Assembly: GCA_003427395.1 (NCBI GenBank)
Contig: BFEA01000001.1
Span: forward strand, 2,284,312 to 2,348,311
Direction of reading: 5' to 3'
From: Chara braunii
Lineage: Eukaryota > Plantae > Charophyceae
Length of the DNA: 64,000 nt
Shown: positions 20,103 through 48,885 of the stretch, one piece after another
Layout: each line of letters opens with the position of its first letter
How positions within the stretch are numbered: the first letter of the stretch is position 1
Notes under the pieces: model-generated
What the model was told of the DNA's origin: nothing
The model's input: the letters and a program-made list of their open reading frames with translations, nothing else
The model's database searches: none
Translations under genes and position numbers: made by a program

Positions 20103-20886
20103 CTGTGTAGTGCACCGAACATGTTCGGCACCCCACCAAGAAGCCGAACATGTTCGAACGCTCGACCGAGCGCGAACCGAACATGTTCGGGCGAGCGCAA
20201 ATTAGGGGGCTGTCGAGCGCGTCCTCGTGTGTGTATGGTGCATATAGTGTGTGTGGGTTGTGTGTGGTGTGTGTGTGTATGCATGTGTGTGGTATGTGTG
20301 TGTGTATGTTCAGGAGTGATGAGCAATAACCCCCAGGGCCCCCGAACCCCTATATGTATACAAAATATATTAAAAAAATAAAAAAATAAAAATGTTCGGG
20401 CTCGGTGTATTTTGGGGCACGATTGGGCTGGGTATCGAGCGTTCGGGTTCGGTCACCGAGCACGAAAGAGATGCTACGCAACTTATTTCTAACTGTTTTT
20501 TTTTTTTCTTCTGCATACTACTCTTAATGGAGACCTGCGTAGCACCGTGTTTACGTTCGGAGGCGAACGCAAACATGTTCGCCCGAACGAGAAAAAACCT
20601 CAAAAACTCTCTGAACGTAAATATAAAAAATATTTTTAAAAAAAAAATCAAAAAAATATAAAAAACATATATCGTATGTAAGATATTAATACAATCAATT
20701 TTTGCCTTGGAATCTGTTCAAATTCGTGGTCAATCATGAGTTAAAAATAAAAAACCGAAAAAAAAATTAATTTTAATTTTATTTTTACGAAAAAAAATTA
20801 CGTTCACCCGAAAATATTCGCGAGTTGTTCGTGCGAACACGCGAACACGTTCGCACGAACGTGAAGGGGCGCGAATAGATACGCAG
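20103..20886. mobile_element. MITE-like insertion interrupting gypsy pol
   Basis: Abrupt compositional change with many CGAACATGTTCG/CGAAC/GTTCG motifs at both ends and a (TG)n tract. Exact ends and TSD not resolved. Confidence 0.65.
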
Positions 20887-23800
20887 ATGGAGACAACCCA
20901 CTCTTGTTAATCACAAAGAACCGTCCTCTTTTAAGTCTGAATTTTTTCTTCAAGTTTGTGCAGTTCATTTTTTCTCTTTCTATTGCTTTCTTAATCTCTT
21001 GATAACTCTCTTCGTATTCTTCAAGGATAAACATAATTTCTTACTCTTTCTTTTGAATCTCATCATCATTCTTTGAAGCGGAACTTTCTCTTAGTTCATG
21101 GACAACCACAAATGCCGCATTGATTTCCGTGTACCAGTCATTCTTATCTTCCTTTTTCTCTTTCTCATTTCATGGATATAAGCATAAGAGACTTTACCCT
21201 AGTCGTCTCTTTCTTCAGACCACACACATTTCTTGTATGAGTTTGGTCTCTTGGAATCTTTGTCATCTTCTTTATTTAGAAATTCATCAGCATAAGCTGA
21301 CTTTTCAGTAGTTTCCTCAATATCTTCGTCATTATCTGTTTTCCACTTAATTCGATTGAAGTCATCTGCTCGATTGTTTTCAGTTAATTTTTTTTCCAAC
21401 TTAAAGTTAAAGGTTCAGATAAAGACAATTCATCTTCTTACTACTAGATCTATCTGTCGGTGTTTTTTCATAACATCAATCACTCCAGATGCATCAGTCC
21501 TCAGAATGAACCTTCTTCCAAGCACATAGTGTCCGAAACACCTGAGGCAATATATGATTGTCAGTAGCTCTTTCCTGAATTGGGTGTAGCCTTTTCATGT
21601 GAAATTGAATGTCATGCTTCTAAACCTTACATGTCTTTCTTTATCATTCTTATATTTTTGTACAAGTACACCACCAAGAACAATTGACTCTCCATCTGCC
21701 TCGATGATAAAATATCCTCCCTTCTCACCATCATAGTAAGACACTCCCAATACTAAACCTCCATCTTTCAATTTTTTTCGTAGATCTTTAGCAGCGATTT
21801 GCCTTTTTTGTGTCCATGACAAGTCAGCTCCTTGCCTTACCATATCCCTTAGAGACTTTTCAAGGGTAGTCAAATGAGGAATGAAAATCCTCCAGAACCT
21901 ACAGAAAACACCTAAGAAGCTTCTGACCTCTGACACTCACTTAAGAGACAATGGTCAACTTAGGATCTTATCTATCTTCTTGGGGTCGGGGTTTCTACCT
22001 TTAGAGCACCATCTAAAACGTAGAATGATTACTGTCTGAAATAGAAGAGACTTTGACCCACTTGCAGTCAAATTGTATTTTTGAAGTCTGTCTAGGACCT
22101 ACTTTATACCCGCTGCATGTTCCCTGACAAACTTCCTAACACCATCACCAACCAATGTCTTATCTCTTTTTACGTTTTTACCGAATTATCATCAATATAA
22201 AGATTTAAGATAAATATCTTATATGACTTGGATCATGTCTCTTTGTACCACTGCCACATCATTAGTCCACCTTTGTGATACCACACACATCTGGATAAGA
22301 CCTTTCGCCATGTGCATGCCAGTCATGGGTCGACTAGTGAGATCAATGAGATATTGATGATAGTCAAAATATAAATCAATTAACGAATAAATACATCGAT
22401 AAGAAAATGACTCAGAAATGAGATTAGCATTATAGAGGTTACGTGCATCATGTGTTGCCACTAAGTTTCACTTTTGGAGATTTTGTATCCATCTCAAACC
22501 ACCTTCTGGTTTCTAAAAACAAAAGCAGCAATTAACATACGGTCCGTCAGCAGACTCAACAATATTATAAACAATTTTTCTATGAAGATATTTCACCACC
22601 TTTGATTCTTCTTTTTCATCATATTTAGTTGGTCTATAATTCCAAGCGATATGATCTACTATCAAGATCTTCGTCATTCTAATCATATCCTCATCCAATC
22701 GTCCTCTCTATTCACAAGTAAAGAAAAAAAACACAGAGAATTTATATCACACTTTGAATATATATTCCTTCTCGTTAGGCCAGATAAACTGATCTGAATT
22801 CATCCTCATTGTGTCAAATCTCTCTCTAGTAACCCTATTCCCAAGTTTTGCTAACTCCTTTAATGCTTTAATGATTCTACTTTTCTTTTTTAATGCTTTA
22901 TCATGATTTTTTTTTTAATTAAAACAGTCAACGGGTTCTTTTGCACCCCCTTGGGTTATATTTTTTCTTTGACTTAATGACTTTTTTTTTTTTAAATGAT
23001 GAGTTGATGCAAATCTCAATTCCATTTTAACACTCTTGACAGATTCAATAACCTTCTTGAATTCATCAATTTGGTCATCATCATTTTTGAGTCGCCCAAA
23101 AACTTTTATCATTTTCGAGATCTGATTAATGCCTACCGCAATTTCTTCTTTGGTTCCTCGTTTACCTTTTTCTTTCAGTTTTCTTGTCATCTCAACAAAA
23201 TTTTCCTTTCTTATAGATTTAATTGACATTTTATATTTAGGATGATTTGAATTACAAACCACAAATGTATGTTTCTGATCACTCTCTGGATCGTGCAATC
23301 CAATCCAAGATGACCCTTCATGACTGAGGAACTGGATATCTTTCATTCTATGCAAGAATATGGTACCCAAAATACAATCATTATCCATCTCTGAAACCAC
23401 GAATCCTAACACCTCAACACAAACAATTTCAACCTCAATGACCAAATTATCAATGAAGCATATCAAATAAAGAGTTATAGCAATGTTACTCAATTGGTGC
23501 TTTGAATTTCTATCAATAGTTCAGATCACAAACTTCCATAGTCTTTTGAGAAAGAAAATTCATTTCTGCCCCGGAGTCTATTAAGATTTTGATCTTCATT
23601 TGATTGATGTAGATGGTCATGTACCCACAACCCACGGTTGTAAATATCATATTTCATCCTGGAAATGACTTGTCAGTTTCAGCAGGGAAATCCAAACCCA
23701 AGTAGTTGATTTCCATTTTTCTCCTTTCAATCCATTTTTTAAGTTTTTATCTTAGCTTAGATGCTAAGGTCATTGTCTCCTTAAATGACATAGTTACATA

Positions 23801-24382
23801 ATTTTCTTCCAAGATCTTTTTAGCTTAGATGCTAAGATCATTGTCTCCTTAAATGACATAGGTACATTATTTTCTTCCAAGATTTTTATGATCACATCAC
23901 TGATTTCCACCTCATCTTCTAGCTCACTTTTGAAAATGAATTTTATTTTTTTCCCTCGTTCGTTCTTTCGAGATGAGAGGTTTTGTTCCTAATCATCAAG
24001 AATTTCATTGACCACACTTTTTGTGGAAGACTGTAGGTAGAGACTTGACTATTGCCACCATCTCGTCTCCATCTAAGAGGGTAATGTTCTCCTTGTTCAA
24101 TACCGTTTGTCTCTCACTGTCAGTGAAATTAGTTAAGAAGATGTAATATGTCTGGAACTCGTCCATGTATGAAATTTTTCTGGCTGTTCAAATGAACGTC
24201 TGAAGGAAAACGTTGAATGCATTATATGTAGTTCTTCTGATGTTAAGAAGATTCTTGCTATTAAAATATTTATCAAACTCTCTTCTCATTCTGTCTTTAA
24301 TTTCTTCCCAAGCAGTAATTTCATCCATCAACTCTCGAACTGTAAGTCTTAAGTCAGAATCACAATATGATAGAAGCTTGCG

Positions 24383-24865
24383 TCACTGTCTATCAGTCTA
24401 ACCATAACAAAGTTTAAATAACTCATATTGATCTAAAAAATCATGTATTTGTGGTCCTCTGAAACATGAAACTATTTCATCAGGTCGTTTTGTTCTTACG
24501 ATGTCTGATTCTCCCTTCATAGTATCAACTCTCTCGACCAATTACCATATGATACCCACTACAATCTCTTAACGAGTCCCTGTAGAGGAGCTAAGTCTTT
24601 GAACTGACAATCTTTAGTCATAATTATAATATGACAGAAGATGCTTGAGTCACTGTCTATCAGTCCAACCATAACGAAGTTCAATTAACTCATATTCATC
24701 CAGACAATCATTGACTTGTGGTCCTCTGAAACATGAAATTATTTCATCAGGTCGGTTTGCTCTTACGATGTCTGATCCTTCTTTCATAGTATCAACTCTC
24801 TCGACTAATTCCCATATGACACCCACTAGAGTCTCTTCAAAAGTCCACGTGGAGGAGCTAGGTCT
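24383..24865. repeat. ~267-bp tandem duplication in the gag N-terminus
   Basis: TCACTGTCTATCAGTC...GTGGTCCTCTGAAACATGAAA...TTCATAGTATCAACTCTCTCGAC at ~24383 and ~24650. Confidence 0.9.
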
Positions 24866-27800
24866 TCCTCTTCCAACCATCTCGACCATCAATTTTTCTT
24901 AATACCAATTTTTCTCTCTTCTCTTGTTACCTTTTAACATTTTTCTTCTTATTCTCAATCCCTCACTATCTTTTTAAGAGATACAAATTCGCCTCTTTCC
25001 TCTCTTGTTTGTTCCACCCCTTAAAATTTTTGTAGGTAGAGAGTATAAGCAATAATAGTATGTGTAGAGATTAGAGGCAATGCAACTCTTCTCAACTTTC
25101 CAATATAATCCTCATTTAGTTATTTATCAATGTCTCTGCTCAGTCTTCACAGTCACTCGAATCATAAAATACCTTGTCATATCAATAATTTCGTAATCAA
25201 ATTACATCGTTTACTGACCACTGCTAACTCTTCTACAAATATGAAGAACTCTACTTATAAAAGTAAGATTTTTGGACAGGAGAGGTGGTTTTCTTTTATT
25301 TTTGAAAGCTTAATGAATACCCCCACCTACTCGTATGATGAGTGATACATGTGACAATAAGGACTGAGAGAATCAGATAATGGCTTTAACGGAGCCCAAC
25401 CCATAAGATACATCTGTGGCATGTGTGATGAGGTCAATCAATCTAATCTATTGGTTAGCTGAAAGATTGGAGTGTCTAATTAATCCCCACAATGGGGATG
25501 TTCCTTTGGGAAAGAACTGGAAAAGGAAGTGTATAGATCAATCGAGTTTGAGTAAATTGATGTGTGAAAAGAAAAGAGACTGAATAAAGACTGAGATCCT
25601 GAATTTTGGCCCACCACTGAATTTGAGTTTTAGCTAAAGGTAGGATGATCAGGGTGCCCGACGTGATAAAATATCGTTAAAAGAGACTGGAAGTGGTGTA
25701 ATCTCAAGTTTGGCTTTGGATGACTCCCTGTTCGTGATTGTAGCTAGTGAAAAGTGGTTTTATCCACTTGTGGAACTAAAAGTTGGAACGTGTCAGTGAC
25801 TGACCGATTATTCGGCTATTTTAGATTCCTACACTAGTTAGGAATTAACTGAGACTTTGGACCGTTGACACTAGCTTAGTTGTTATGAGGAATTAAGGCC
25901 TAGCGTTGTTATAACTTATTGACCGTTTTAGTCGAAGTTAAGAACTCGAGGAAGTAATCACATAATTTTTTTTAAAAAAATTATGTTTGAATGGTACTTG
26001 GTTTATGCATTCGTTGCGACGGGGACGTCGCTTAATAGGGTCCGGGCAGACTGTCGTACCAAATACCCTTACAAGGGTATTTAGCCTATTTTCTGCAAGT
26101 CGCACCAATGCGGCCTCATCCGCTTGACGGTGCACGAGCGGGAGGTAGTTTAGGTCCTTGCCCGAATGAGTGGCGTGTGCGGGGTATTGACGGCGAGGTG
26201 CAATCATGTGCAACCTGGGTGTGCACGCCGTCATGGGCTAGCAGGACGTGCGACCCTTCGTCCGCTTACCTTTTTCGTGTTTTTACGTTTTACTTTTATT
26301 TTATTATTTATTTGTCTTATTTCAAAAATTTGCTAAAGTTCCTTTGATTCGGTGGTCGGTTCCGAGGCCGACACCGGGCCCGACTAGTCTGGCACAATTG
26401 CTACGTCACCGGACACAGGGTACCGACGAAAAGTCCACCCTACCCACGTTGAAATATGGATTGGAGAGGTCAAAGTATGTGGGAGTGGTGGAGTCCGTGG
26501 TCGTGGCTTCCTTTATTTCCCGTGTGGAGAGTGTCGGTAGCCTAAGGACGGAAGGGAATTGGAGAGCATCCGAGCGGGCCGGTGGGAGGCCACACTATAA
26601 GTCGCACCTCAATTGGAACCCCTTCTCCACTCCGGTTATCAAAAGTTATGTGTTGAATATTTATTTCTGCCGCCAAGATCTCTGTCGGGGACTTGCCTCA
26701 CTTAATCCACGCTTAGGGTTGCAGCGGGCCCGTGTCTGTGACTCTGCGGGTGACTAGTATGAAAAACCGGAGTGAGACTTGTCCGCAACAGGTCGGAAGA
26801 AGTGTCAGGGCTTGCTTGAAGGAAAGGGGGACGGAGGAGGCGGTGGTGAAGCGGCAGCAATGCTGCTGTGCCATTCTGTTGATCGGACTTGGGTATAGGG
26901 ACGAAAGACTAATCGAACCGCCTACGGCAAATCTCCCCTAAGGTTTCCCGTGGGCCGGCTAAAACGACTGCGGAGACCACTGCACTAAGGAGCATAAGGA
27001 TCGAGGGTGAGAAAACGGGAAGGCAGCCAAAGCAGGGGCGAACCTGGGCGACAGTCTGGGCCAGATGCATTCGATATGAAGAGACAGCAAGGGCGATGGC
27101 GGAGAAAGGAGCCGAGCGCAGTCGAGGAAACACAACTCTCTCGTTCCTGAGTGGAATCGAGAGAGGAAAAACGCGATTCCAAGGTTTTGAAGGTTGGCGA
27201 TGCCGATTTTGACGTTAGTTTGAATAGAGGATTAGTAAAAATGCAGTTGGAGGGAAAACGAGTGTGCAAGGATATGTGGGGAAAAAATGGAGACTGTATA
27301 GTTCGCGAGGTACATTGTGAAATCGGGTGAAGGAAAAGCTGATGTCGGGGTTTTTGCCCCGAGCGAGTCCGAAACTGTTGTCAGATATGGACGAAAGTTA
27401 GTAGAAAAGAGGAGTTAGTGGGATAATAGGTGCGCTAAACTATGGCCGAAGGAGAGTTGGTGGGGGAGGAGAAACAAGAGTTCTACTCAAAACTCGGCGG
27501 GATCGGTTAGGGAGAGGACTAAAGTAGGGGTTTTAATGGTGAGCGAACCTGAATCTATGGTTGGAATAAGGTGAAAGGTAGTTTAGGAGTTGTTAAGAGA
27601 AGGTTGTGCGCAAAAGCATAGAGAAGGTGGGCGTGGTTGTGTGAGAAAGCGAAGCTCTCGCTCGTTCTTTGATGGAGACAAGCTAGGGAGGGGTTGTTTT
27701 AAAGGTTTTCACGGGTGGTGAATCAGGTAGGGGTGTTAGTTTTTGAAGCAGCGTAGTGTGGGGAGAGTTCCGAAATTGAGATATACTTCTCATGTTATAA

Positions 27801-28934
27801 GGGAAGGTTCGTTCTCGTTTTGCCCAGGGGAAGTTTGGAAAGGTAGTGTATATTTCCATGTTCTAACAAAAGATTCATACCTGTTTTACTTATCCTAGCG
27901 ATGGGAGTAGTTCTCTCTGATACCCTGCGCTGTACTTGGCCAGAACGGGCATGACAGTTTATGTAAAGCCAAAAAGGGGAGGAACAAACGCAGGAGAGAG
28001 TCAGAAATCGGTTATTGTCGGAGTACAGTCGTTGAACGTGATCGTGCTATTGACCTTATGGCTGCAAAGATCACGCTATCCACCGTCGTTTGAAATTCGC
28101 ACCCGTGTTGCAGGTGGGTAGCAGCAGGTAAGGGTGTGGTGACTCGGCTCATATCTGTCGGGGAGAGAGAGAAGGAGAGCTCGCTTCGAAGACCGGGCCG
28201 GCAGTGCAGAACAAGCAGAAAGTCGAGCTACGGTTTTGAACAGCAGAAGGCAGAGCGGTGGGTTAACCGCACCTATAATTGTCTGTACTTCAGCACCAGT
28301 TTCATCCTCGTACTACACGTGGCTGAGCAAGGGAGCAAGGCCTGCGGTGGCAGCTTGTCCTTGTGCTGATTGCAAGTCCCACTATAGTGGAACTCGTAGT
28401 TCCAACCGGGATGTTTACCATATCTGTCGTGGCTCTGATAGCAGGACTAGTAACCGTGTTTACTGCTGTAGTTGCGAGACTAAGGGTGTCCTTGTTACCC
28501 TACGGTGGTGATAGAGTATTGTTAAATAGAACGGAGGCGGCTACCTTCTTTCCTTTTGAAGCTACTGCTGATTGAGTCCTACATTAGACTGTCGTTTCCC
28601 ACTGTTCAAGTTGAGATGAGAGTTTGTTATTGTGTTATAGAGGACTCTGCTCCCTTCTGAGCCGAGAGTTGTTGTGCACTCGCAGTGTGTCGGCCACTCG
28701 CTTGTGAAGCTACCTCGAGAAAAGATTGCTCACTTATTGGGACTGTTGTCTGTCAAGAGCCCACCGTTTCCCGCTGAGAGGACCCCAACAATGCAAGCGC
28801 GGCTGTTGTTTTTAGGGGATTACAGCTACATGCAGAGCCCTGCTGCTATATTCTTTTTAAGCAGGGGGAGGGGTTGCTGAGATATGGGAAGTAGCCAGGG
28901 GGCTAACAACTGGCAGTCGGATTTTGGTTGACCA

Positions 28935-29212
28935 AGCTGCTGCCGTTTGACCATCATAGCGGGACCCTCAGGCGCATCGAGGCACCAAGGCCCTCTCCTG
29001 GGAGTTGAGTCAGTCCCTCTCCTGTATCTCGAGAGTATGAAACCCCTCCTTCTTTCGTTCTAACTCTCAGTCTAATCCTGTTCTGAGAGGAAGGCGGCAG
29101 GCAGGATTGCAACTCATAGGACCGCAGCAAGACTCTATGGGGAGTCAGCCCACCGATTGCGGGAGCTCTGCTGGAACTCGGGAGGAGTTCTGAAGGCAGG
29201 GAACTGGGAGGT
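28935..29212 (+). promoter_or_regulatory. Conserved block ending in a putative splice donor (unit A)
   Basis: 27-nt identity CCCACCGATTGCGGGAGCTCTGCTGGA with 36308-36334; ends AG|GTAAAAG. Confidence 0.45.
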
Positions 29213-29464
29213 AAAAGTTTCGTTTTCCTCTATAAACCTAATTATAACCGCTATCTGTATCTCTTGCTATGGTTGACTGAGTGTACTGCGTGTACCCTTA
29301 CTTTGACTTTTACGTTTGACTTTCCGGGCATGATTTAGACTAAGTAAATGAATATATGCGCAATGTCAGTTTGAGTTTCATTGTTTGACTGAAAGCGGAT
29401 TGTGGGGTTGCGTCTGGAGGAAGGATGGGAGGAAGGCAGTTTGGCTCGAGTTTAACTTGGTCAA

Positions 29465-30200
29465 CTAAAGTCAGGGTTAATCTTCATAAGATTGGAGGAC
29501 CCAGTGCTATGTTTATTTTCGATTGCCTGAAGGAGTGGACAGGTTCCCAGAAGTGTGGGTGGTCTGGTTGCTCTGATTTGCGAGGGCTGCTTGTGATTGA
29601 CTTTCAGGGACCAAGCATGTTCCATAAGTTTGGGTGACTTGGTCGCCTTGTTTACTTTGGGTTTCTTTCAATTTCTTTAGTTTCTGAACGAGGAGGTCTG
29701 AGCATGTTCCATAAGTTTAGGTGACTCAGCCTCTTCCTGCTTTGGTTTTAAGAGAAATGAACCAGACTGAGGACCAAGACATGTTCTTTAAGTTTGGGTG
29801 GTCTTGGTCCAACGCCATGCACATGCTGGAACCAAAAGACTATAACTTGGCTATACTTTACTGTTATCCTACTTATGAACAGGCTAGTCAGACAGGGTTC
29901 CATAAGTTGGGTGGTCTGACTACAGCTTATCACTAACTGAAGAGAGTACGAATTAAGAATAAACTTGTGGTACGAAGGGGCAGACTGAATCTTGAGCTAA
30001 AGATGATCGGTTCAGTTATATGCTACCGTAAAAGGCTAAGTGCAGATAATTATATAAAACTCAGATACTTAAACAGTTCAGGACGACTAGGCTGGCTAAC
30101 CTAGCCATGTGCCCAAAGAAGAGAAAAGTTGTAGTACCCTGTGTTTGTGAATATTCAATGGTTGAGCTAGACATGTTCCATAAGTTTGGGTGGTCTAGCT
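29465..30200 (+). repeat. Hairpin array, variable stems around a 20-nt core ATGTTCCATAAGTTTGGGTG
   Basis: Clear units at 29609-29644, 29698-29729, 29771-29810, 29885-29922 and 30165-30200, plus degenerate ones. Confidence 0.85.
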
Positions 30201-30489
30201 TTATGCCCTATGTAAGCTGGGTTTAAAGGGATAAATCATTGAAAGATCATGAACTATTGTTTGATAAGGTTGACTTTGGGGATTGTGAGAGTACTTACCT
30301 TTGTGGTTTGACCTGCATGTGGCCGAGTGAGACTACTACTTAGTTTGAGTTTCAGTTTGATAGGTAGTTGCTTTAGTTGCTCGCCACGTGCTAGAGCTAT
30401 AGGAGTTAGTTTTAATTTCATTTTTTGAGTTAAGTTTAGTTTTACTTAAGTCAATTTCTGCATTTTCAGGGATCATTTCTTATCCTTGG

Positions 30490-31050
30490 TTTTGTATAAA
30501 TTTTGGTAAGCTACTTTCTCTACGGGAAGCACTGCCGAAATTTCTGCAAACCCAAGGAGCTCGTTAAATTTTGGTTTTTCAAAGTATAAATTGTATAAAT
30601 TTTATATATGACTTAGTAAAAATGAGGGAAGTCTCATTTTTTAAAAGGAGTGCTGCCAAAATTTTTGCAAATTGAGGGAGTAAGACAAAAATTGGACCTT
30701 GAGAAGTCAAAGTCACTTTAGATTCTGAACTTAGCTTTGTATAAATATTGGATTAATACTTTTCTGAAGGGAGTGTTGTCAAAATTCTTACAAAACTAAG
30801 GAGTTAGTTAAATTTTGTCTTAGTTAAACTCAGGTTTGCTCTGGCTTCATATATGACTTAGTAAAATTTGGAAAGTCTTCTTTTCTAAAGGGAATGCTGC
30901 CCAAATTTTTGTTAATTCAGGGAGTCGAACAAAAAATTGACTTTGGAAAGTTGAACATTATTTTTGTTTTCATATCCGGGCTGATATAAATTCTGAGAAG
31001 GCATTTTTCCTACGGGAAGCGCTGCCTAAATTTTCTTAGATTAGAGGAGA
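30490..31050 (+). repeat. ~120-bp tandem repeat x5 with core GGGAAGCRCTGCCGAAATTT
   Basis: Cores at ~30524, 30647, 30769, 30890 and 31014; two copies in unit B (~38083, ~38168). Confidence 0.85.
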
Positions 31051-34000
31051 TAGATTATATTTTGATAGGTGTCGATCCTGACAATCCATTCTGTATGCGG
31101 GAAATTTTGCCATAGGTCTACCTTTTTTTGGGTATTGACTTAGAGATAGACCTAGGTTTGGTTATCAGGAGAGTCTTGAATGAGAATGTGTCATGGGGAT
31201 TGANNNNNNNNNNNNNNNNNNNNNNNNNNNNNNNNNNNNNNNNNNNNNNNNNNNNNNNNNNNNNNNNNNNNNNNNNNNNNNNNNNNNNNNNNNNNNNNNN
31301 NNNNNNNNNNNNNNNNNNTGATCGATTATATTTTGACAGGTGACGATCCTGACAATCCATTCTGTATGGGGGAAATTTGGCCATAGGTCTACCTTTTTTT
31401 GGGTATTGACTTAAAGATAGACTTAGGCTTGGTTATCAGGATAGTCTTAAATGAGAATGTGTCATGGGGATTTGTTCTCCATACACAAATGATTTAGCTT
31501 GGGCATTGACCAGTCTTATAATACAGACTTTTTTTGGATATTCGATCCAGGATTTGGACTAGTTTCAGCTTGATCCTACGAGGATTATCTTCGGTTATCA
31601 TTGATAATAGGTCGGTTGGTTGATCGTCGACTCGTCGGCTCATGACACAACTTTGCTCACACCTTACCTCAACTCGATTGCCTTATCCCTAAGATTTGAT
31701 ATGCTTCTTTGAGGGTTTTTAACCAGACTTCTTTTAATGACCATTATGAGGAACTTATGAGATTTGTGGAAAGTTGAGCTATGACTGGGGCTGGAGTGTG
31801 TGAGGCGTGGTGAGAGTTACAAAAAACAGTAAAGTTGACCACATTGGTGTATGACAATGTGACTATTGTGTATGCCTATGTTTTATGCAGGTTAGTACGT
31901 GGAGCTTGATATATGAGCCGTACCTTGGAGACAATGAGAATGACAACCATGTGACGCACGATCTGCATACCTGATGAGTTCATGTTTCCCCTTCTTTTAT
32001 TTTATCCCGAGATCTGATTTGTTGGGATGTTTATTTATTTATTGAGTGACTTTGCTTGTTAATTTTGATAGTTGGACGTTGTAGTCCGTGACAGCCGTCA
32101 AAGTCGAACCTCTTGACTTCTCTCCAGGTCCTGGATGATAGAGCTGGTCTCCGGGGCAATAAGAGACGATTACCATCACAGGTATGAACTTGTGTGCCAC
32201 CCACTCTCCGCAGGGTGCAGAAGAGGGTGTGGTTTTCAACCGCACTTGGCGGTTGTCCAGCGTCGAGAGATCAATCCCTCAATGCGCATGTCAGTCGACA
32301 CTTGAGTGTCGAATGCGACCCTCGAGATTAACGAGGATCCCGTGAGTATGGGTATTACATAGTACGCTGTCGGCCCGAATACTCTTACAAGGGTATTTGG
32401 GCGCGTTTTTGCAGCTTACATGAAGTACGTTCTTTGACGATATCTAGGAGCGTGCCCTGTTTTTGAGCGACCACAACCAATTCTCAGGGGTTGGGAGTGA
32501 CACACGCTTTTGAGTTGATTAGAGATTGTGTGAGTGCGCACTTTGGGGGCACGCGTTAGCTTGACCAAACAATTGACCAATGAAAACTATGAGACGTCGG
32601 TAGAGCAAGTTAGTGCTAGGTTAGAATCTTAGATAAAGTCACAGGCTCGCACGCGCGGGCGAAGTTACAGGGCAGCGCAGAGGTGACCAGGTGAGGCTGC
32701 GATTAGGAGTTTGTCTGACTTGCTGAATCCTGGGATTGAGGCTAGCAGCAAGTAGCAGAGGAGTGAAGGAGTGCAGTTTGGAAGATAACTGAGGGGTTGA
32801 GGGTCTTGTGGGACTATCCCTCTTAGTTTTGCGAGGGGTTTCGACAGCGGGCCCATGGGACAGGACCGAGGATCAAGCGTCAACGGTCCTACCCACTTTT
32901 TCTAAGTTTTTATTCTTAAATTTTACTAATATTAATATTTTCATTTTAGTTTTTTCCCATATGGGAAAATTTTACTAATATTAATATTTTCATTTTAGTT
33001 TTTCCCATATGGGACGTGGTCCGGTACCGGTCTCAGGACCGGTCGTGAAACAGTGGATACACCCATGAACTGTTGAAATACAGACCCAAGTTCGGACCAG
33101 ACGGAGTTGCTCGATCGTCTAGCAAGCTATAAGATGGCACGGGGGCACTGTGGCGGAGGCAGCGATACAGCCGGGGAACGCGTTCGGTGGAGTTGGGTAT
33201 ATGGCCGAAAGACTACTCGAACTTCCCGATGGCTGGTTCCTTCCTAAGTTTCCCTCAAGATAGCCGGAGCTGTTGAAGCAATCCGACTGCACGACTGAGC
33301 GACCCTCGACGGAAGAAGGCGAGGCCGCAGGGGCGTGGAGGAAGCGAGAGCAAGGCAAGGGAGAATCAAATGAATCTGGACGCGGGTCCGCGCCAGATAC
33401 AGTCGACGAAAGAGATGGTGGGAATAGAGGAGGTAAAAAACAGTTAACTCACTCGATTCTTGTCGGAATCGAGTGAACTAAGGATGACGATTGGAGTTTC
33501 CTGGGCTGGCGAATTCAGATCTGTAGTCAGAATTAGTAGTAGGTTAGTAGGTTAGTCGGTGTAAGGGAATGTGACCGCGCGGAGCTATGGCGGAGGGGAG
33601 AGGAAAGAGAGAAGAAAGGGCATAGCTCATTCGTTGGTGTACGGATTTGGACGGGGAAAGAGGCGATCCCGGGGTTTTGACCCTGGGCGAATCAGTTTAT
33701 GAAGTCAGTTTTAGAGGAAAGTCAGCAGAAGAGGAGGTTAATAGAAAAGTGGGTGCGCGGAGAGTGTCGGGGAGTTGGACATGGCCGCACGAAGAAGTGC
33801 ACATCTCACTCGATTTTGGATAGAATCGAGGGAGGAAAAAAGGTAGGTAGGGGTTTTGTGCAGGGGCGAAACTGTTAGTAACGTCAGTTTGGCTGCTAGA
33901 TCAGTAGAAAACGAGAAGGAAGAGAATCGCGGTGCGCTGAGATAGTGAGGAGAAGAAAGGGGGGCAGCGGCGTGAGTGAATCCGGTCGGAATCCGGTCCA

Positions 34001-36094
34001 GATGCGCGGAGCAAGCATAGCGCATGCGGATGAGCGAGCGCGCGAGAGGAATAGGTGGAGTAGAAGTTAAGAGGAACGAGGTAATGGGAAGGAGGAAGCA
34101 AAATGGTTGGTAACAACAGCAGACGAACAAAGAACAGTGAGTGGCAAGCACGGAGAGCACGAGGGAGATGAGAGCTAAAGAATAGATGAGCATAGAAGGA
34201 GACGAAGGGGATGACCACGGGAGGAAGGAGTGAAGAATGAGAAAGACGAAAGTTACGAAGAGGTGAGAAGACTGACAGGAAGGGGGAGGGAAGGGGAGTC
34301 AGGCTACGTACCTGGTCGGGGCGTGCCCGCAACTGCAAGGCGATGTAGCAGGCAACCGCCGTAGGTGTATCTTCCCGTGTTCGAGCGGGAGATTCGTTCG
34401 ATATTGCTCATCGTTCGACGGAGGTAGAGCAAGTCCAGCGTGCGGGGGAAAGAGAGTGGAAGAAAAGTAAGTAGGCTTGCCTGCCTGCTATGGTGAAGAT
34501 CGCTCGTCGTACCAATCAGCATCGAAGTCACCGTAGTGATGCGGGTCGTGGTAGTCGGAAGCGCCAGCTCGTTTTCTTTCCGTAGCTGATCTACGTCGAG
34601 TTTCGTTGGTTTCACTGCACATACGTGTAGTTCATGTGACCATGCCACATGGAGAGAGAGACGGGGAGAGGATAGAAGGGAGAAGCATACACACCTGGCG
34701 GTTATGAGAATTTTGCCTCGAAGTGTCCCCCCCCCGGCAAGCCAAGCTCTGAACTTGGTCGGGTTGACGACTAAGTGCAGTTGCACGCAGGAGGTAAGAA
34801 CGACGAAGGAGGCGAGTAGGATGATAGCAACAGGAAAAGAAGGCGAAGAAGCACTTACCTGACGGCTGGAACTGGTGATGTGGATGAACTGGAAGACGAG
34901 TTATGGTGCCAAACTGTGTGCTGACCAACTTCGAACAGGGCTTTTGCGGTAGGTAGGGAGGCAGAGGGAACTTACCGCATGATGGGAGTGCCCGACCGAC
35001 AGTGCGGGATAAACCGAATGTTGAGCTAAGGGGCCATGTTCACCGGGCATGTATTCGCCCATGTTGAGCTAAGAGACTCATTCTGATTTCGCTCATTCAG
35101 TCGGCGGAGGTAGGGTGAAGTAGATCGCGAGGTGGAGGCTTACCAACTGGCGGGCGTGTTTCTTATCATCTGGTTCGTTACAGTGCTACTCATAGCCCGT
35201 GTGCCTTCCTTTTTCGACGGTCTACGGAGTCGTGTTGGCCTCCGGGACCTCAGTGGGGACAGTGTGACATCGTAGGGGGTTCTGTGTGCACAGGGGAAGA
35301 CTGTGGCTTACCTGAATCCTCGTGAAACGGTAGGGGCTTTACTGTGCTTCTGCTGATATTTCTCAAATTGGGCATGGACTCTCTGTGGCGGTGTTGCCAT
35401 TCTAAACATAAGTGGTAACTTCTCTGCTATATTGAACTGTGGGCTAAAGAGACCCTATAGCTAGACTGTATTTGAGTGTTGTGCTTCGCTGTGCCACCAT
35501 TGTGCGATGCTAGGGTTGCTGTTCATTGACCTTGCTAGTGCTAAGATTGCCAAGCCTTGAGCAAACTGGATTTGCTGTGCTTTCGGGGTACTAAAGCTGA
35601 GTCTTTAGGTAGTTGTTTCGGTTTGTCATAACTACTGTTGGATCTTAGGACTGTGCTGCTACTGTGCCTCTGCACTGTGATGCATCTTTAGTTGAACCGT
35701 CTGCTGGGAACAAATACTGTACGCTCTGCTGACTGTGGATTGTTGTACTTACTGGGCACCTTGCCCCAAACCGCTTGCTGGCTATCATGGTGCGCAACAT
35801 TATGGAGGTTTCTGCGAGCTCTCGGTTGTTACATTGATATCACCACGGCTGCTGACTTCATCTGCGCCACTATGCTGTATTTCGTTGTGTACCGCTGCAT
35901 CCCGAATAGACTACGAAGTTGTATCATAATTGAACACGGTCTTTCTGGGCTGTGAGGCAGCAGTCTGGTCAGAGAGAGGGATAAGGGAAGCTTGGAGGAG
36001 TGAATGGGGTTGGTATGGAGGAGGCTAGTGCTACAGTTTTGAGGTTCGGGGGACTGTTACTCTGCGTTTCGGCTGTGATCTGACCATCTGCACT

Positions 36095-36370
36095 GCGTGT
36101 TATTGGCCATCATTGCGGGGCCCTCAGGCGAATCAAGATTTCGAGGCCCTCTCCCGTAAGTGTGAGCGCACCCCTCCAGTATCTGAGAGTCTTAATGTTT
36201 CTTTCGCTATCCTTCTTACTCTAAGTCTAGTCTGAGGCTAGGAGAGGAAGGCCGTAGGCGGGATTGCAACCCGTAGGACCGCGCCAAGGCCTCTGTGGGA
36301 GCTTCGCCCCACCGATTGCGGGAGCTCTGCTGGAGCCCAGGAGGGGTTTTGGAGGCCGGAAACTTCAGGT
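36095..36370 (+). promoter_or_regulatory. Conserved block ending in a putative splice donor (unit B)
   Basis: Homologue of 28935-29212; ends CAG|GTATAAC. Confidence 0.45.
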
Positions 36371-36687
36371 ATAACTTTCGTCTGACGCGTGTGATCCCTT
36401 CCCCTAACTACATTATTCCTTTGCGTACTTGAACATAACTATGAGAGGTTATTACCGCGTATTTTTGTTATGTATGGCAGGACATGCTTTGTGAAGGGTT
36501 AAATAAACAAATATAAATGAGAGTTCAGATAATCCTTCAATGAATTCAGACAAGGGAATTGGGGGAAGGTGGGAGAAAGGTTTTGCATGTGTTTGACCGG
36601 GTCAACTCAAGGCTGAGCCCCTCCGGGTGGATGTGGGCCCAATGCTATGTTTTATTGGTGTTTGTTGGACTGTATGAATGGCTTTAT

Positions 36688-37675
36688 GGCTTGTCCTACC
36701 CGGGTAGGATGGATCAGTCGCTGTTTTCTTTGAGGGTTTCTGAACAGGAGGACGGACACCCTGGGTAGGGAAGACTCCGAATCCTGGCGTTTATTTGAAT
36801 GAGTTGAGGTGTATGTTTCTTCTGAGGGAACAAAGGCATAAGACTAAGCGTACCCTAGGGTTAGGGAAGCTTAGTCGTGAGCTATGAATCAACTGGTCAA
36901 CCAAAGTATAAAATCTTATACATATATTATAGAACTTATACTTCTGACAGACCGGGCACCCTGGGTAGGGAAGGCCAGTCAATAAGTCAGGTAGGACAAA
37001 AGAAAAAAATAAAATAGATGGAGAATAAAAACAAGGTAAGTGGGCAGACTGAACGTACCCTAGGGTTAGGGCGGTTCAGTTGTATGCTCGTAATAACACT
37101 AAGGAGCAGAGAGTTAGTATAAATCCGTTTTTATTTTCCCTTCTAAACAAAAAGGGCGGATTGGAAGTTCCATTAGTTGGAAAGGTCCGATCGACTGCCT
37201 AACAAGAGAAGGAAAAAGTTTGTGCAAGTATTCGTATCATATTAACTGTTGTATGACTAACTAGGCGTACCCTAGGGTTAGGGCGGCCTAATGATATGCT
37301 TTTGTCGTTGATGTGATGTAAGTTGGACGTACCCTAGGGTTAGGCCGGTCCAACTTTTTGTCGATTGTACTTACGTTCAGGCAAGTTAGGCTTACCCCTG
37401 GGTAGGGATGATCTAATTTTATGCCATATGTAACCTTGTTTAAGGCAAACTGGGCACACCCGAGGGTTAGGGCAGCCCAATCCTATGCTTCATGTCGTTA
37501 AGTTGGCAGAAGTCAGGTGTACCCTAAGGGTTAGGGCGGTCTGGTCATATGCATTACGTATATGGTTCATGTTATGTGGGCACACCCTAGGGTTAGGGCA
37601 GTCCAGTTGTGCGTACCTTTACTTGTTTACTTAGGCAGGTTGTGCATACCCTTAAGTTAGGGCATTGTTTGATCA
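36688..37675 (+). repeat. Hairpin array, variable stems around a 19-nt core GTACCCTAGGGTTAGGGCG
   Basis: About a dozen units; clearest at 36842-36876, 37048-37080, 37262-37290, 37320-37356 and 37451-37479. Confidence 0.88.
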
Positions 37676-38842
37676 TATGCCATAGGCAAGGGTGTTACTG
37701 ATGGAGAAGAACTGAGTGATCTAACGAACTACTTGGGTCAAACTGATGTGGCATTGTGAGAGATGTTTGTTTATGCATGCTTGTGGACTCTCACTCTGGG
37801 GCGTCTTTTTTGATAGGTTAGCTGCTTAGACGCTCGACAAGTGCTGGAGCCATAGGTAGATGAGATGGATGATTGGAGGGGAAACTTGGGACAAAGATAG
37901 GGTTGTCCTTACTTGAAGTCAGAGTTGACGATAGCTCACGATACCATCTTCTAAAAGGGGATTATGTAAACTATCTTCAAGCCTAAGTATCAAGTAAGTG
38001 TCAGAAGTTAGTCCCAAGTATAACTTTGCTTTGTCTTTCTGTTTTCAACTTTGTATAAATTTTGGCAGCCTCCTGTTCCTACGGGAAGCGCTGCCGAAAT
38101 TTTTACAAATCTGAAAGAGTAAGTTAATTTTGGACTCGTAGAAACTATGGAAAGACACTTTTCCTACGGGAAGCGCTGCCGAAATTTTGTAGAATTTAGA
38201 GCGTTAGATTATTTTCAGCTAGGAGAAATCTGGCAATCCATCCTGTTTAGGGGATATGCTACCGGAATTTCTTACATTTTTAGATGAACATCAGAGGTTA
38301 GTTAGAATGGTAGGATTATTTCTTGATCACTCAAGCATGGCTTGGGTACTGGCTTGTGCTGCATTGCAGGTCACCTTTATTCATATTGATTCAAGGCTTG
38401 ACTATCTTCAAGCTGGTCCTACAAGGATCACCTTCTGTTATCCTTTGATAACAGGTCGGTTTCCGACTCAACTCTAATTCACTCTCGCTACTCAACCTAA
38501 AGGCCTTAGCCCCTGTGGATTGAAATGTTTCTTTTGGTTCTTTACCCAGACTTTATTGAATGGCCATTTAAAAAGGACCGAGTACTTTATTTTGGGAGGT
38601 TGGACAGAGGTTGGGGTTTGTATGGTTAAGGCAAAGGGGTGTCAGCGCAGAGAATGATTGAAGTTGACCCCGTGTAGTGCATGGACTTTTGGTTGAATTT
38701 TTGATGTGATTGCAGGTATGTTTGGTGATTCGGACTTTGGATTTGACTACCTACGATCACTAAGGTATATATGGCTGAGAGGAATCCCACTGTGATTGTG
38801 AGAAGTGATCGTCACATATTTATAACCTTCTATAAATATATG

Positions 38843-40302
38843 GAGGGTTGTCGAGCCCCGGCCCCGGGGCCCCGGCGGGGGTCCCGGGGGCCGGGGGTCG
38901 GCACCCCTGGCCCCGGCAAAAAAAGTGGAAAAAAAAAATAAAAAAAAATTAAAAATACAGGGGTTTGCGCAGCCGCAGCCTGCACCCCCTGGGCCAAACT
39001 GCGATATTGCAGTTTTGGCCCGACCTCGCCCCCCCCCCCGGGCTACATCCCCCCCATGTAGTGCGGGCGCGGGGCCGGGGACGAGGCCCAGCGGGTGCGG
39101 GGCCGGGGTTGCCTGGCAGCGGGGGCGGGGGTGCGGGGTCTGGGCAGGGGCGGAGGTACGGGGCTGGGTGTGCGGGGGGTGGNNNNNNNNNNNNNNNNNN
39201 NNNNNNNNNNNNNNNNNNNNNNNNNNNNNNNNNNNNNNNNNNNNNNNNNNNNNNNNNNNNNNNNNNNNNNNNNNNNNNNNNNNNNNNNNNNNNNNNNNNN
39301 NNNNNNNNNNNNNNNNNNNNNNNNNNNNNNNNNNNNNNNNNNNNNNNNNNNNNNNNNNNNNNNNNNNNNNNNNNNNNNNNNNNNNNNNNNNNNNNNNNNN
39401 NNNNNNNNNNNNNNNNNNNNNNNNNNNNNNNNNNNNNNNNNNNNNNNNNNNNNNNNNNNNNNNNNNNNNNNNNNNNNNNNNNNNNNNNNNNNNNNNNNNN
39501 NNNNNNNNNNNNNNNNNNNNNNNNNNNNNNNNNNNNNNNNNNNNNNNNNNNNNNNNNNNNNNNNNNNNNNNNNNNNNNNNNNNNNNNNNNNNNNNNNNNN
39601 NNNNNNNNNNNNNNNNNNNNNNNNNNNNNNNNNNNNNNNNNNNNNNNNNNNNNNNNNNNNNNNNNNNNNNNNNNNNNNNNNNNNNNNNNNNNNNNNNNNN
39701 NNNNNNNNNNNNNNNNNNNNNNNNNNNNNNNNNNNNNNNNNNNNNNNNNNNNNNNNNNNNNNNNNNNNNNNNNNNNNNNNNNNNNNNNNNNNNNNNNNNN
39801 NNNNNNNNNNNNNNNNNNNNNNNNNNNNNNNNNNNNNNNNNNNNNNNNNNNNNNNNNNNNNNNNNNNNNNNNNNNNNNNNNNNNNNNNNNNNNNNNNNNN
39901 NNNNNNNNNNNNNNNNNNNNNNNNNNNNNNNNNNNNNNNNNNNNNNNNNNNNNNNNNNNNNNNNNNNNNNNNNNNNNNNNNNNNNNNNNNNNNNNNNNNN
40001 AAAAACAAAAAAAAAACAGCAGAATGAATCTTCTGCTGAAACATGGAACCATACACCGCCATATGCTATGTCTTTTGTGCATTTGGTGAGTAGTGGAGCA
40101 GGCCCTACTGGACGTATTCGTAAGAAAACAAAAACAAAAAAACGAGAGAGCAGAATGAATCTTCTGCTGAAACATGGAACCATACACCGCCATATGCTAT
40201 GTCTTTCGTGCATTTGGTGAGTAGTGGAGCAAGCCCCACTGGGTGTTCGCACGACCTATTATATATGTACATACATACGCGTTGGGTGTTCGCACGACCT
40301 AT
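38843..40302. mobile_element. Secondary insertion(s) in unit B spanning an N-gap
   Basis: Very GC-rich left end and a 131-bp tandem duplication at 40020-40241. No counterpart in unit A. Confidence 0.5.
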
Positions 40303-40923
40303 TGTGACTGCGTGCAAAGGTTAAACAGGTTATACTTTGAGGGAAAAGGGAGATTCCTCTTTCATCCTTTTAACTTTTAGAATTTTATAGTTGGACGTTA
40401 TAGTCCGTGGCAGCTGTCAAAGTCAAACCCCTTGATTTCTCTCCAGGCCCTGGATGATGGAGCTTGCCTCCTAGGCCACGAGAGCTGACTGCCACCACAG
40501 GCATGAAACTGTGTACCACCCACTCTCTGCAGGGTACAAAAGAGGGTGTGGTTCTCAAATCGCACTTGGCGGTTGTCCAACGTTGAGAGATTAACCCTCA
40601 AGACGCGTGTCAACCGACACTTGAGTGTCGAACGCGACCCTCGAGATTAACGAGGACCGCATGAGTATGGGTACTATATGGTACGCCATCATTGCGACCG
40701 CTTGCATACGCTTGCATTGCGAGTCGATATAAGTTAACCTTACGTCCGCGCGATTTTATACTAAGTCTTACACGCGACGCCTAACCGAATTCTGGCTTAG
40801 AAAGTTATGGGTCAGATACTGAAGGGACTAGGAGTGTTGTTGTGTTGCTGTGTTATTTGTTTTTTGTCTTTTTCATGTGTGTGAATGTTGTGATGTACAG
40901 CGTGGTCTGTGTGATTCGTCCTA

Positions 40924-41028
40924 CCTTCTTCCCTCAAATACAACGTACGGTTATTATAGCTGTATTTGAGCCATCTTTCAGTCTAGATACAACTATAATG
41001 ACCGTACGTTGTATTCGGGGGAAGAAGG
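40924..41028. mobile_element. 105-bp Tc1/mariner-type foldback MITE with TA TSD
   Basis: ~45-bp TIRs CCTTCTTCCC..AATACAACGTACGG; TA at 40922-3 and 41029-30. The empty site GCGTCCTAGTCGACCGGCG is present in unit A (TA at 41677-8). Confidence 0.9.
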
Positions 41029-42096: not shown

Positions 42097-43870
42097 CCGT
42101 GACCCGATGACACGGGTCGCTGAGATTAGATGGCTTAGTGGCAACAATGCCTTAGAGTCGTACATCACGACATTCCACCGCGCTCGCGCCCAAATTCCCC
42201 CCTCCCTCATACCCGACGACGCTATGGTCCAGTATTTCCGTTCCGGGTTACCCCAACCCTTCCAACTTTAGATGTTGGCATACACAGTCCAGACACTCCC
42301 TGAGGCCTTCAACATTGCGAGGGCCATCCAGCTCACCTATGCACCTCTTGTGGGCTCTACATTTGAGCCTGGTGCTGCACCTCCCGCTGCCACGTCTGCC
42401 CATAACACATCTCGCCCCCGACAGTTTTCCACGTCTCGTCGTGGCCCCCGTCGAGTTCCTGGACGCGCCTTCTTCCGCCGTGTCCAGACTACGCTCCACA
42501 AGTTGTCGAGCACTGAGGAGGGTACTAGTTGGGATGGATCCCATAATGACCCAAACCAAGGACATCACCCCCAGTCTCCTGTGGATGGTGACAATCCCGA
42601 CCAGGAAGAGCACCACGTCCGCGCCTTCTCTGCTTTCCTCAGGCAGCGCCAGTCCTCCTCATCAAGGACCCGCTCATCGGCCACACAACATCCCCTCCCA
42701 TCGGGCTACGTCTTCCCCCGGACCCAATTGACTATCGCAGAAAGTGAGGACTTCCGTACACGAGGTATATGTACCCGTTGTCGCCTACCTGGTCACACTC
42801 CGTTCACCTCTCCCTACGCCGACGCCCTCCAACGTCACTTTGCTCAGCAGTCCCGCCCTCGGCCTGACCCCCCCATTTCGACCTCCAGCGCCGCAACCAC
42901 TTATCGGCTATCTCCCGTCCCCCTGATCCTCCTACAGTGGCAGGCATACCCGCTCGTGATTCTACCTTCGCGCCGCTTGCTACTCTTTCTGAGGACTCGG
43001 GCCTGACCTCACTGTTGGTTGATCCTAGCGATGTTGGTGCACCCTCCCCTTCTTTGGCTAGCGTCTCTCGTGATCCTCCTCCTCGTCCTCCTACTAGGCA
43101 TGATCTAGGCACGGCCCGCTGCGGTGCTTCCCTTGTCGCAACCAAGGATATCATCGATTTCCTGGACCTCAAGTGCGTTAAGGTCCACCAGGAACGTTTC
43201 TGCCTCAGAGAACATACCCTATCTGCGATGTCTCAGCACCTACACAATCCCGATCGCACCTTACTGATTATTCGAGTGCGCTTTGGGACCTCTACTAGAG
43301 TGTATCACGCACTATGGGACTCTGGCTCTACTGGCGACGTCATTCATCCTCACGTAGTTAAGGAGGCATCTCTCTATGCATCTACATAACCTTCTACTGT
43401 CACCGTTACACTTGGTGACAATCAGGCCAAGTCCTTGTCAACGCACGTCACTTCCAGCCCGAGGCCGACACGCTTCGGAAATTCAGACGTCGATATATCG
43501 GTCCATGCACTCTTCTTTCACCCACCGGACCTAATTATGACGGTCCAGTGAGCTTCAAATTGAAGTTCTTGAGTCCATGTATTGCGCTAACCTACATGAT
43601 GTGTCCAGGTATCTCTATTGCACCCCTTCAGACGGTCTCCCCCTGAGTTCCATGGTCGACCTTACCCTCGCCCCTCTCCCATCATCATTTAGGGTCACGA
43701 GGAGTTTATCGTCTCTGACATCGCGTCCCTGTGTATGACTGACGGTGACCCTCCCCACCTCGAGTATCTCGTTCGATGGAAGGGTTACCCTCGCGAGGAG
43801 TCTACTTGGGAGCCTCTCGAGCACCTGAAGCATGCTATGACTTTTGTGCGCGCTTACGATTGTGCTCATC
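42097..43870 (+). mobile_element. Internally deleted chromovirus-type gypsy: gag - PR - IN C-terminus - chromodomain
   Basis: gag (YITTFHRARAQI...YFRSGLP), knuckle-like CTRCRLPGH, protease ALWDSGST, KFRRRYIGP and VSLLHPF, chromodomain EYLVRWKGYPREESTWEPLEHL. Confidence 0.85.
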
Positions 43871-44089
43871 CTTTCCCTTTATCATCCTCCCCTCTTACTT
43901 CTCGTCCTTCTATTGACCCAGCTACTTCTGCGACCACTAACATCCCCCCTCCCCCATCAATGGGTCCTCCAGCTCCACCGGCACCTACCTCAGGTCCTCC
44001 TTCCCCTGTGGATGTGGTTCCGCCTGTTGTTGCAGTTGATTCCTCTCTCCCTCATTGTACCCATCGACTTCATTTTCGCTATCGTGACT

Positions 44090-45276: not shown

Positions 45277-45289
45277 CTGCAGTTCTTCA

Positions 45290-48215: not shown

Positions 48216-48304
48216 GGGGATGATGGGCCCTCCCGTTTTTGGTTTCTGGCGGGACTTGCTCGGGCAGGTAGTGGTAGCCACCGTTTTCAAAATAATCAGA
48301 AACA

Positions 48305-48885
48305 GGCCTCGCCGCACGGCACACAAAACGAAAAACGAAACGAGCACATCTTCCGGCAGAAAATGGCCAGGTTCGTCAGTTTGCTATACATAGTAACGAG
48401 TGTGTTTTTCCACCTTTCGTGGGCAGATGCACTCGTTTCGTTTTCATTCGAAAATGAAAACGAAACGAGTGCATCTGCCCACGAAAGGTGGAAAAATACA
48501 CTCGTTACTAAAATGAAAACGAAACGAGTGCATCTGCCCACGAAAGGTGGAAAAATACACTCGTTACTATTTATAGCAAACTGACGAACCTGGCCATTTT
48601 CTGCCAGAAGATGTGCTCCTTTCGTTTTTCGTTTCGTGCGCCGTGCGGCGAGGCCCACAGACGACTGAACTGAGAGATGGTGTGCTATCTCTCTCTCTCT
48701 CACGCCACCAGGTAGGTACAGGGCATCACCGCACGGGACACGAAACGAAAAACAAAACGAGTGGATCTTCCTGCAGAAAATGGCCAGGTTCATCGGGTTG
48801 CTATAAATAGTAAGGAGTGTATTTTGCCACCTTTCGTGGGCAGATGCATTCGTTTCGTTTTTGTTTCAAGTGCTGTGCGGCGAGA
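48305..48885. repeat. Foldback-like structure of ~150-bp units (forward, reverse, forward)
   Basis: Near-perfect palindrome 48305-48655 centred at ~48449, with a 60-bp duplication in one arm; third unit at ~48728-48885. Confidence 0.85.

Follow-up and report, generated by a model that had tools for sequence, protein, structure and literature searches.

Two neighbouring long repeats in the genome of Chara braunii carry rows of short predicted hairpins, each enclosing a central core of about 20 nt, and the locus raises the question of how such rows have evolved and what their cores could be recognized by. The window analysed here, a stretch of 64,000 nucleotides from contig BFEA01000001.1, is eukaryotic DNA in which transposable elements lie nested, interrupted by N gaps. 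The row in the first of the two repeats is a real, non-random array of cis-elements with an unusual evolutionary pattern.

Two long LTR-like units and their surroundings

The two repeats, termed units A and B, lie head to tail and are colinear, each being about 6.5 kb in length. Comparison of the units by blastn gave colinear patches of 70-88% identity, extending from the first 30 bases to the last 300. The main features of both units and of the sequence next to them are as follows:

26052..32359, + strand: unit A, LTR-like, with a TG start, a ..TTACA end and an N gap at 31204-31318
28947..29223, + strand: conserved block in A, 74% identical to B 36103-36381 and having the highest DNA depth
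29212 (A) and 36369 (B): GT donor-like site near the end of the conserved block
32360-32367: PBS-like stretch of 8 nt after A, with a purine-rich stretch lying before A
32368..40678, + strand: unit B, LTR-like and colinear with A, delimited by blastn against A and by its termini
33150..33275, + strand: eukaryotic LSU rRNA fragment in B (Rfam RF02543, E=5.4e-6, below the gathering score)
~38850-40270: foreign repeat plus N gap inside B
40679: PBS-like TGG start after B
42100..43900, + strand: broken chromovirus remnant with the C-terminal part of Gag, an integrase tail and a chromodomain, 1.4 kb after B

Units A and B are likely the LTRs of a highly repeated element, as read from their termini and from the PPT-like and PBS-like stretches. 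Unit A has TG...CA termini with a short inverted repeat (TG at 26052, CA at 32359), a TGG-starting stretch follows both units, and a purine-rich stretch precedes A. The right end of B is degenerate, with an alternative end at 40688 fitting a 10-bp inverted repeat at 9/10 positions. No second near-identical LTR copy and no TSD were found for either unit within the window, and no conserved ORF common to A and B was detected by tblastx. No complement to the PBS-like stretch that would allow self-priming was found apart from the LTR start. Unit B starts 8 nt past the end of A, within the PBS-like stretch of the latter (32360-32368), and this junction represents either an insertion into the primer site of a relative or a tandem LTR junction. 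The LSU rRNA fragment of about 125 nt sits approximately 800 bp inside both units, its homolog in A (26885-26918) being 88% identical over 34 nt and giving no Rfam match of its own. Both units also contain a second degenerate repeat 3' of the hairpin array, located at 30485-31105 in A, where the spacing is about 120 nt, and at 38047-38260 in B.

The remnant downstream of B was recognized by Pfam matches to Ty3_capsid (E=1.9e-4, below the cut-off) and Chromo (E=2.6e-11), and zinc-knuckle-like and protease-like motifs were seen in it by eye, with the RT, RNase H and integrase core being absent. Its homologs, 55 of 55, all come from Chara braunii and are for the most part RT/integrase/chromodomain polyproteins; two of these proteins are 84-89% identical over the chromodomain part, and the protease-like frame of the remnant has no homologs. 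A linkage of the remnant to B is only putative because two repeats of about 400 bp with their own CA ends lie between them. These belong to two tandem units of about 700 bp (40683-42096), each ending in the repeat with its CA end, which are possibly a TRIM-like element. About 12 nt following the end of B repeat the start of the conserved block of B, as judged by eye. Further afield, a LINE-like remnant occupies 45100-48300 on the minus strand (RVT_1, E=2.3e-12), a long inverted repeat lies at 48305-48861, and two more decayed pol-like regions were noticed by eye at 53400-59200 and 19000-25300, both on the minus strand. An Arg-rich antisense frame of 47 codons in B (34491-34631) has no homolog, which is weak evidence. 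No partner protein for the array was found by the ORF comparison of A and B or in the protease-like and Arg-rich frames.

The TG..CA termini, the PPT-like stretch and the neighbouring Gag/PR/IN tail/chromodomain remnant are points of likeness to Ty3/gypsy chromoviruses, namely Tcn1-like elements and the RT-IN-chromo polyproteins of Chara braunii. Tcn1-like chromoviruses of non-seed plants have short LTRs and no known primer (PMC2864245). The SM-Tcn1 LTR given there measures 440 bp, whereas the LTR described here is about 6.3 kb in length and the adjacent remnant is without RT. Cassandra and related elements likewise carry rRNA-derived sequence inside the LTR, although it is a 5S-derived Pol III promoter and not an LSU fragment of about 125 nt.

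The hairpin arrays and their cores

The hairpin units were annotated in A one by one, and in B as a row of candidates:

29469..29508, + strand: A0, deviant unit with flanks orthologous to those of B0
29531..29571, + strand: A1, canonical-type unit absent from the sequence-only reading, core at 29541 with 4 edits, training member of the covariance model
29607..29646, + strand: A2, exact core at 29617-29636
29694..29733, + strand: A3, core at 29704 with 1 mismatch, flank ortholog of B2
29771..29810, + strand: A4, 10-bp perfect stem, core at 29781 with 2 mismatches, weak flank match to B3
29884..29923, + strand: A5, 9-bp perfect stem, core at 29894 with 3 edits, no supported B ortholog
29980..30020, + strand: A6, deviant unit with arms as in B5 and a core of neither A nor B type
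30083..30108, no strand assigned: A7, collapsed unit, a short hairpin with its core lost, placed from its position
30163..30202, + strand: A8, exact core at 30173-30192, flank ortholog of B9
36606..37674, + strand: B array of 14 candidate units (B0-B13) with three core variants, B7-B13 being spaced 62-65 nt apart
37154..37200, + strand: B6, candidate unit, a hairpin in unit position that folds at -18.1 kcal/mol

A total of nine unit positions were found in A, six of them canonical (A1-A5 and A8), two deviant (A0 and A6) and one collapsed (A7). The six canonical units share a core of 20-21 nt, which is exact in two of them and carries 1-4 edits in the others, and within 3 mismatches the core has four matches in the window compared to a mean of 0.00 in 100 shuffles. 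The sequence-only reading had named five arm pairs, all of which are present (29609-29644, ~29699-29729, 29771-29810, 29885-29922 and 30165-30200). The 20-nt core that it assigned to these five units occurs in every one of them, although it is exact only at 29617 and 30173, and its inventory of five needs to be extended by a sixth canonical unit (29541), the deviant units at 29480 and 29992 and the collapsed one at ~30090.

Most units are predicted to fold into a variable lower stem of 7-10 bp, an internal loop of 3-4 x 2 nt, an upper stem of 4-5 bp and a loop of 4-6 nt; in the fold predicted for the whole array, A1 and A2 are not formed. No Rfam family matched 29400-30300 better than E=3.2, and the scan of the whole window gave no Rfam match over either array, with no covariance-model match over the array to known families such as hammerhead/retrozyme, TAR and psi. 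No tandem array was called over A. A search of the window for other core arrays (10-mers with at least four copies within 1.5 kb) returned none except a repeat at 20118-20572, and the A and B covariance models found no further arrays in the window. Cruciform DNA was considered for the units and rejected, hairpins with a 20-nt loop on a stem of 7-10 bp being poor extruders. Units A6 (29979-30025) and B5 (37040-37088) have near-identical arms, and the A6 core forms a different short stem that resembles A0, making a third or older core type possible.

The array in B holds three core variants, with B3 being a mosaic of two of them, and this coexistence looks like turnover in progress. Mean core identity is 85% within A, 73% within B and 51% between A and B. 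The claim that cores are homogenised within each element therefore holds for A, and the A and B cores do differ, but in B it is weakened by the lower identity, the three variants and the mosaic. The two core types are nevertheless related, as the B covariance model matches unit A8 at E=0.046. The main B core, located within 36850-37600, contains a perfect palindrome of 10 nt as well as two telomere-repeat-like or telo-box-like hexamer words; the A core has neither a Watson-Crick palindrome nor such words.

One unit in B (37159-37192) had been described as an A-like survivor. This is B6, whose core is 50-61% identical to A cores and 38-52% to B cores and whose hairpin lies at unit spacing. The identification was rejected as unproven, because six other sites in 60.5 kb match the A core equally well and the A covariance model misses the unit at E<=10.

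Flank orthology, arm pairing and turnover of cores

The homologous position of the two arrays, already proposed from the sequence, is borne out by the colinear alignment of A and B and by matches between unit flanks. Flanks were compared over 35 nt on each side with the cores excluded. Four pairs, A0-B0 (score 20), A3-B2 (19), A6-B5 (29) and A8-B9 (20), are colinear and reciprocally best, compared with scores of at most 13 among 1500 random pairs, a null that was not anchored at cores. Weak scores, equalled by other pairs, were obtained for A2-B1 (10) and A4-B3 (11); A5-B4 (2) lacks support, and A1 is without a partner. Core identity in the four strong pairs is only 0.40-0.48. In only two of these four are the cores canonical in A as well as in B, and the flank scores of these two come mostly from one side (16+3 and 1+19). 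Identical cores were conversely observed in unrelated flanks, namely in A2/A8, B2/B4 and B5/B7 (scores 3-5).

Whole-unit duplication did occur in B7-B13, where B7-B10 score 26, B8-B12 14 and B9-B13 13 at a spacing of 62-65 nt. The sequence-only reading would have been abandoned if duplication of whole units including their arms had accounted for everything; this was examined, and the array is not so explained, since orthologous flanks and arms in A and B carry the core of their own element while identical cores sit in unrelated flanks. Orthologous flanks with discordant cores further indicate that the array predates the split of A and B and that the cores were changed in place in at least one lineage. 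Sequence comparison thus supports an array older than the A/B split whose cores appear to have been replaced in place and in concert. Concerted, element-specific cores are supported for two elements, and the apparent in-place switch is supported by these two elements and by the two strong pairs with canonical cores on both sides.

The arms behave differently from the cores. The left arm of each unit pairs best with its own right arm, and the arms are unit-specific. Cognate arms pair at -13.8 kcal/mol compared to -7.2 kcal/mol for swapped arms in seven A units (p=0.00024, close to the attainable minimum of 1/5040) and at -8.1 compared to -5.6 kcal/mol in nine B units (p=0.0044); with all 22 units taken together, none of 200,000 permutations reached the observed cognate-pairing score. 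Covariation was assessed in alignments of those units that are nearly equal in length, six of the nine in A and eight of the fourteen in B. In these aligned units core identity is 0.87 in A and 0.84 in B, whereas that of the outer arms is 0.40 and 0.44 respectively. Of ten lower-stem pairs, eight vary at both of their positions in A, and likewise in B. The covariation score was reached by none of 500 shuffles, which ignore relatedness, and controls with a slid register gave at most 0.16 versus 0.60 in A and at most 0.13 versus 0.35 in B. The stems are mainly perfect Watson-Crick (76 of 98 cells). Several compensatory changes were seen by eye in orthologous arms, namely T-A to G-C in A3/B2, C-G to T-A in A8/B9, and C-G to T-A together with a paired deletion in A4/B3. 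Upper-stem pairing was also observed by eye to be kept across the A/B switch through a two-sided change from A-T to T-A.

Other copies of the family were surveyed through contig depth in run X1, which is about 9-20 on 28000-28855 and 17,000-103,000 on the array, or some 2,000 times the flank, values that serve as a rough indicator and not as a copy number, with X1 possibly being the source of the window and hence not independent. This depth, against about 9 in the flank, points to an interspersed repeat of high copy number. In unit A, 28000-28855 lies at single-copy depth and everything from 28960 onwards at 10^3-10^5, and B has unrelated sequence in the corresponding part; the 5' part of the LTR seems to be copy- or subfamily-specific. 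Among the 40 of 761 substitution variants listed, those within units move towards the canonical form. In particular, the closing C-G pair of A2 is re-established in other copies (29637 A>G, 29503/30820 of the depth, 96%), and the missing T of A5 is restored in 41% of the depth, which suggests that the A core prevails among many copies. At several joints, an A8-like core is found in the flanks of A1 or A3. Searches with exact patterns gave no matches to the A core in metagenome contigs and in viral contigs, and none to the conserved-block motif in metagenome and prokaryote genome contigs; no holder of the sequence among those listed is recorded as RNA.

Strand preference and transcripts gave a mixed picture. 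A preference for the plus strand had been argued from a single G-U pair, and it was not confirmed, as tests of folding, of composition and of the whole array are all neutral. Although all eight A units examined fold better on the plus strand, by 3.7 kcal/mol, composition-matched shuffles already give 2.75; the B units have no plus advantage (0.0 versus -2.1 in shuffles). G-T and A-C oppositions number 10 and 4 (p=0.40 versus composition), and the whole-array fold has z scores of -1.1 on the plus and -1.9 on the minus strand. In X10, a stranded polyA library, reads of relatives fall on the conserved block (28950-29210) at a strand ratio of 79.6:2.6, likely representing plus-strand RNA under the usual protocol. 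In this library the RNA/DNA ratio is 14-fold lower in the array than in the conserved block, with the drop lying immediately beyond the GT donor-like site. Such a drop fits an array present on unspliced RNA only, but none of 167 reads is at least 99% alike, and the drop may reflect subfamily divergence, with expressed subfamilies failing to align. Run X11 tracks DNA depth (rho 0.89) with no drop in ratio and has an excess of the opposite strand in the array (496:272). No splice joint was present among the joints listed for the RNA runs. A loose-end motif in X10 resembles B 38668-38682 with 2 mismatches, and 41 of 100 shuffles give as many at 3 mismatches; a skip over the array is only a lead here. 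Near-consensus splice donors on the minus strand were noted at 30298 and 26269 in A and at 35311, 34858, 34694 and 34311 in B, and together with the antisense excess in X11 they hint at a spliced antisense transcript.

Possible roles of the array and their biological meaning

In the model that we favour, and to which we would assign an even chance, the array is a structured multivalent protein-binding platform on the unspliced RNA of the element, in which selection on the stems would concern nothing but their pairing, and short-tract conversion or template switching would renew the cores. Some nine predicted two-stem hairpins on this RNA would be bound as a platform, for packaging or export, by Gag/NC or by a host protein. 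An internal-loop and apical-loop geometry is typical of protein sites such as TAR, psi and MS2-type sites. The lower stem would only present the tip, any paired sequence being able to serve, and differences between stems would prevent adjacent units from mis-pairing or recombining. Template switching during reverse transcription, or else gene conversion, would carry new core variants from one unit to another in tracts whose ends fall within the arms or slightly inward of them; single switches would lead to mismatched arms and would then be lost. The distal B units would also have grown by ordinary tandem duplication. The position of the array 3' of the donor-like site, and its depletion in one of the polyA libraries, are what would be expected of a signal kept only on unspliced RNA. 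As for an RNA element that folds on the sense strand, arm covariation (8/10 pairs) was found, with the strand tests being neutral.

A DNA-level alternative, doubtful in our judgement, takes the cores as duplex sites for a host or element factor and lets template switching keep the arms complementary. It is compatible with the neutral strand tests and with stems that are mostly perfect Watson-Crick, an outcome that template-switch mutation also yields, and the telomere-repeat-like or telo-box-like words in the B core would suit it. A duplex site, however, needs neither the upper stem nor the internal-loop geometry, which A and B have both retained, one two-sided change inside the core included, and the A core is without a telomere-like word. 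Family-specific motif arrays bound by TE proteins do exist (PMC5735166), but the VANC motifs are said there to multiply through the formation of tandem repeats, unlike the present array with its orthologous flanks and discordant cores. It appears improbable that the array has no function and arose through tandem duplication of units, with quasi-palindrome correction causing the arms to drift and neutral conversion the cores (molecular drive). The real unit duplications in B (B7-B10, B8-B12 and B9-B13, scoring 26, 14 and 13 at 62-65 nt spacing), the decay of A6, A7 and B13 and the polymorphism of B for three variants are as this would have it, yet colinear A-B orthologs persist while neighbouring sequence has diverged by about 30-35%, the cores are twice as conserved as the arms, and other copies restore the canonical letters.

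Two further proposals were weighed. During reverse transcription the hairpins could serve as pause, strand-transfer or dimer sites, either in single-stranded DNA or in both strands, with the core used for nucleic-acid pairing and not for protein binding; we consider this quite improbable. Both strands fold about equally relative to shuffles, and the main B core holds a perfect palindrome of 10 nt, as retroviral dimer signals do, but the A core has no Watson-Crick palindrome, and a dimer signal present in many copies would be prone to pairing out of register. A role of the array in giving rise to small RNAs, or as their target, is highly improbable, the reads of X11 on both strands notwithstanding, as Dicer-type processing needs stems longer than 7-10 bp. 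The analogy here is with Sirevirus LTR palindromes, whose loci are siRNA hotspots and form hairpins (PMC4728375), but Sireviruses conserve the arms and vary the centre, the reverse of what was found in Chara.

The platform model can be set beside several known systems. The maize Sireviruses Ji and Opie carry LTR palindrome arrays of 7.3 units on average that differ among families, loci and members, and LTR swapping in co-packaged RNA has been proposed for them (PMC4728375). They share with the units described here the presence of several hairpin-forming units per plant LTR. They are, however, Copia elements with the array in the upstream cis-regulatory half of the LTR and a 17-nt palindrome whose arms are more conserved than its centre, whereas the Chara array has a conserved centre and unit-specific, covarying arms and lies 3' of the transcribed conserved block. 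The Sirevirus pattern of conserved arms around a variable centre was not seen, core identity being 0.87/0.84 against 0.40/0.44 for the outer arms.

The closest tested case of a 'subfamily code' is VANDAL/VANC, where short family-specific motifs, many per element, co-evolve with a binder encoded by the element (PMC5735166). The VANC case involves DNA transposons, duplex motifs of 8-9 bp spread by tandem repeats and a known protein, in contrast to a core of 19-20 nt in a predicted hairpin that appears to be replaced in place; spread by tandem repeat formation was not seen over A and holds true only for B7-B13. RNA export and packaging elements such as RRE, the HTLV RxRE in the LTR, MusD MTE and MLV PTE are multi-stem-loop cis-elements on unspliced genomic RNA (PMC4588558). 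They are single folded domains, whereas here 9-14 interchangeable modules with concerted tips were found. In the literature searched, no description of such a hairpin array and no plant Ty3 packaging signal of this form was found, although the genome paper of the species or its supplements may describe the family.

To our knowledge, how LTR retrotransposons of the plant lineage recognise their own RNA, and how non-autonomous elements pick their partner, is poorly mapped. A tentative extension of the platform model, considered rather unlikely, is that giant Chara retrotransposons carry a modular RNA address code. Here 9-14 modules would pass on their fixed scaffolds one by one, whereas core-only conversion would overwrite all tips together, so that a subfamily would change its code in a single step. 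A putative Gag/NC or accessory protein of the element's own would then package cognate RNA alone; sister subfamilies would be shut out, and the code would determine by which non-autonomous elements it can be parasitised. The proposal of the sequence-only reading, a subfamily-specific partner that would tell self from non-self RNA, is likewise a special case of the platform model and is given the same low odds. If the array is instead a duplex motif array or neutral, it would become a curiosity of LTR evolution. The array itself consists of modules of about 40 nt that come in two natural versions on orthologous scaffolds, and it clearly exemplifies concerted evolution confined to some 20-28 nt within repeats that have otherwise diverged.
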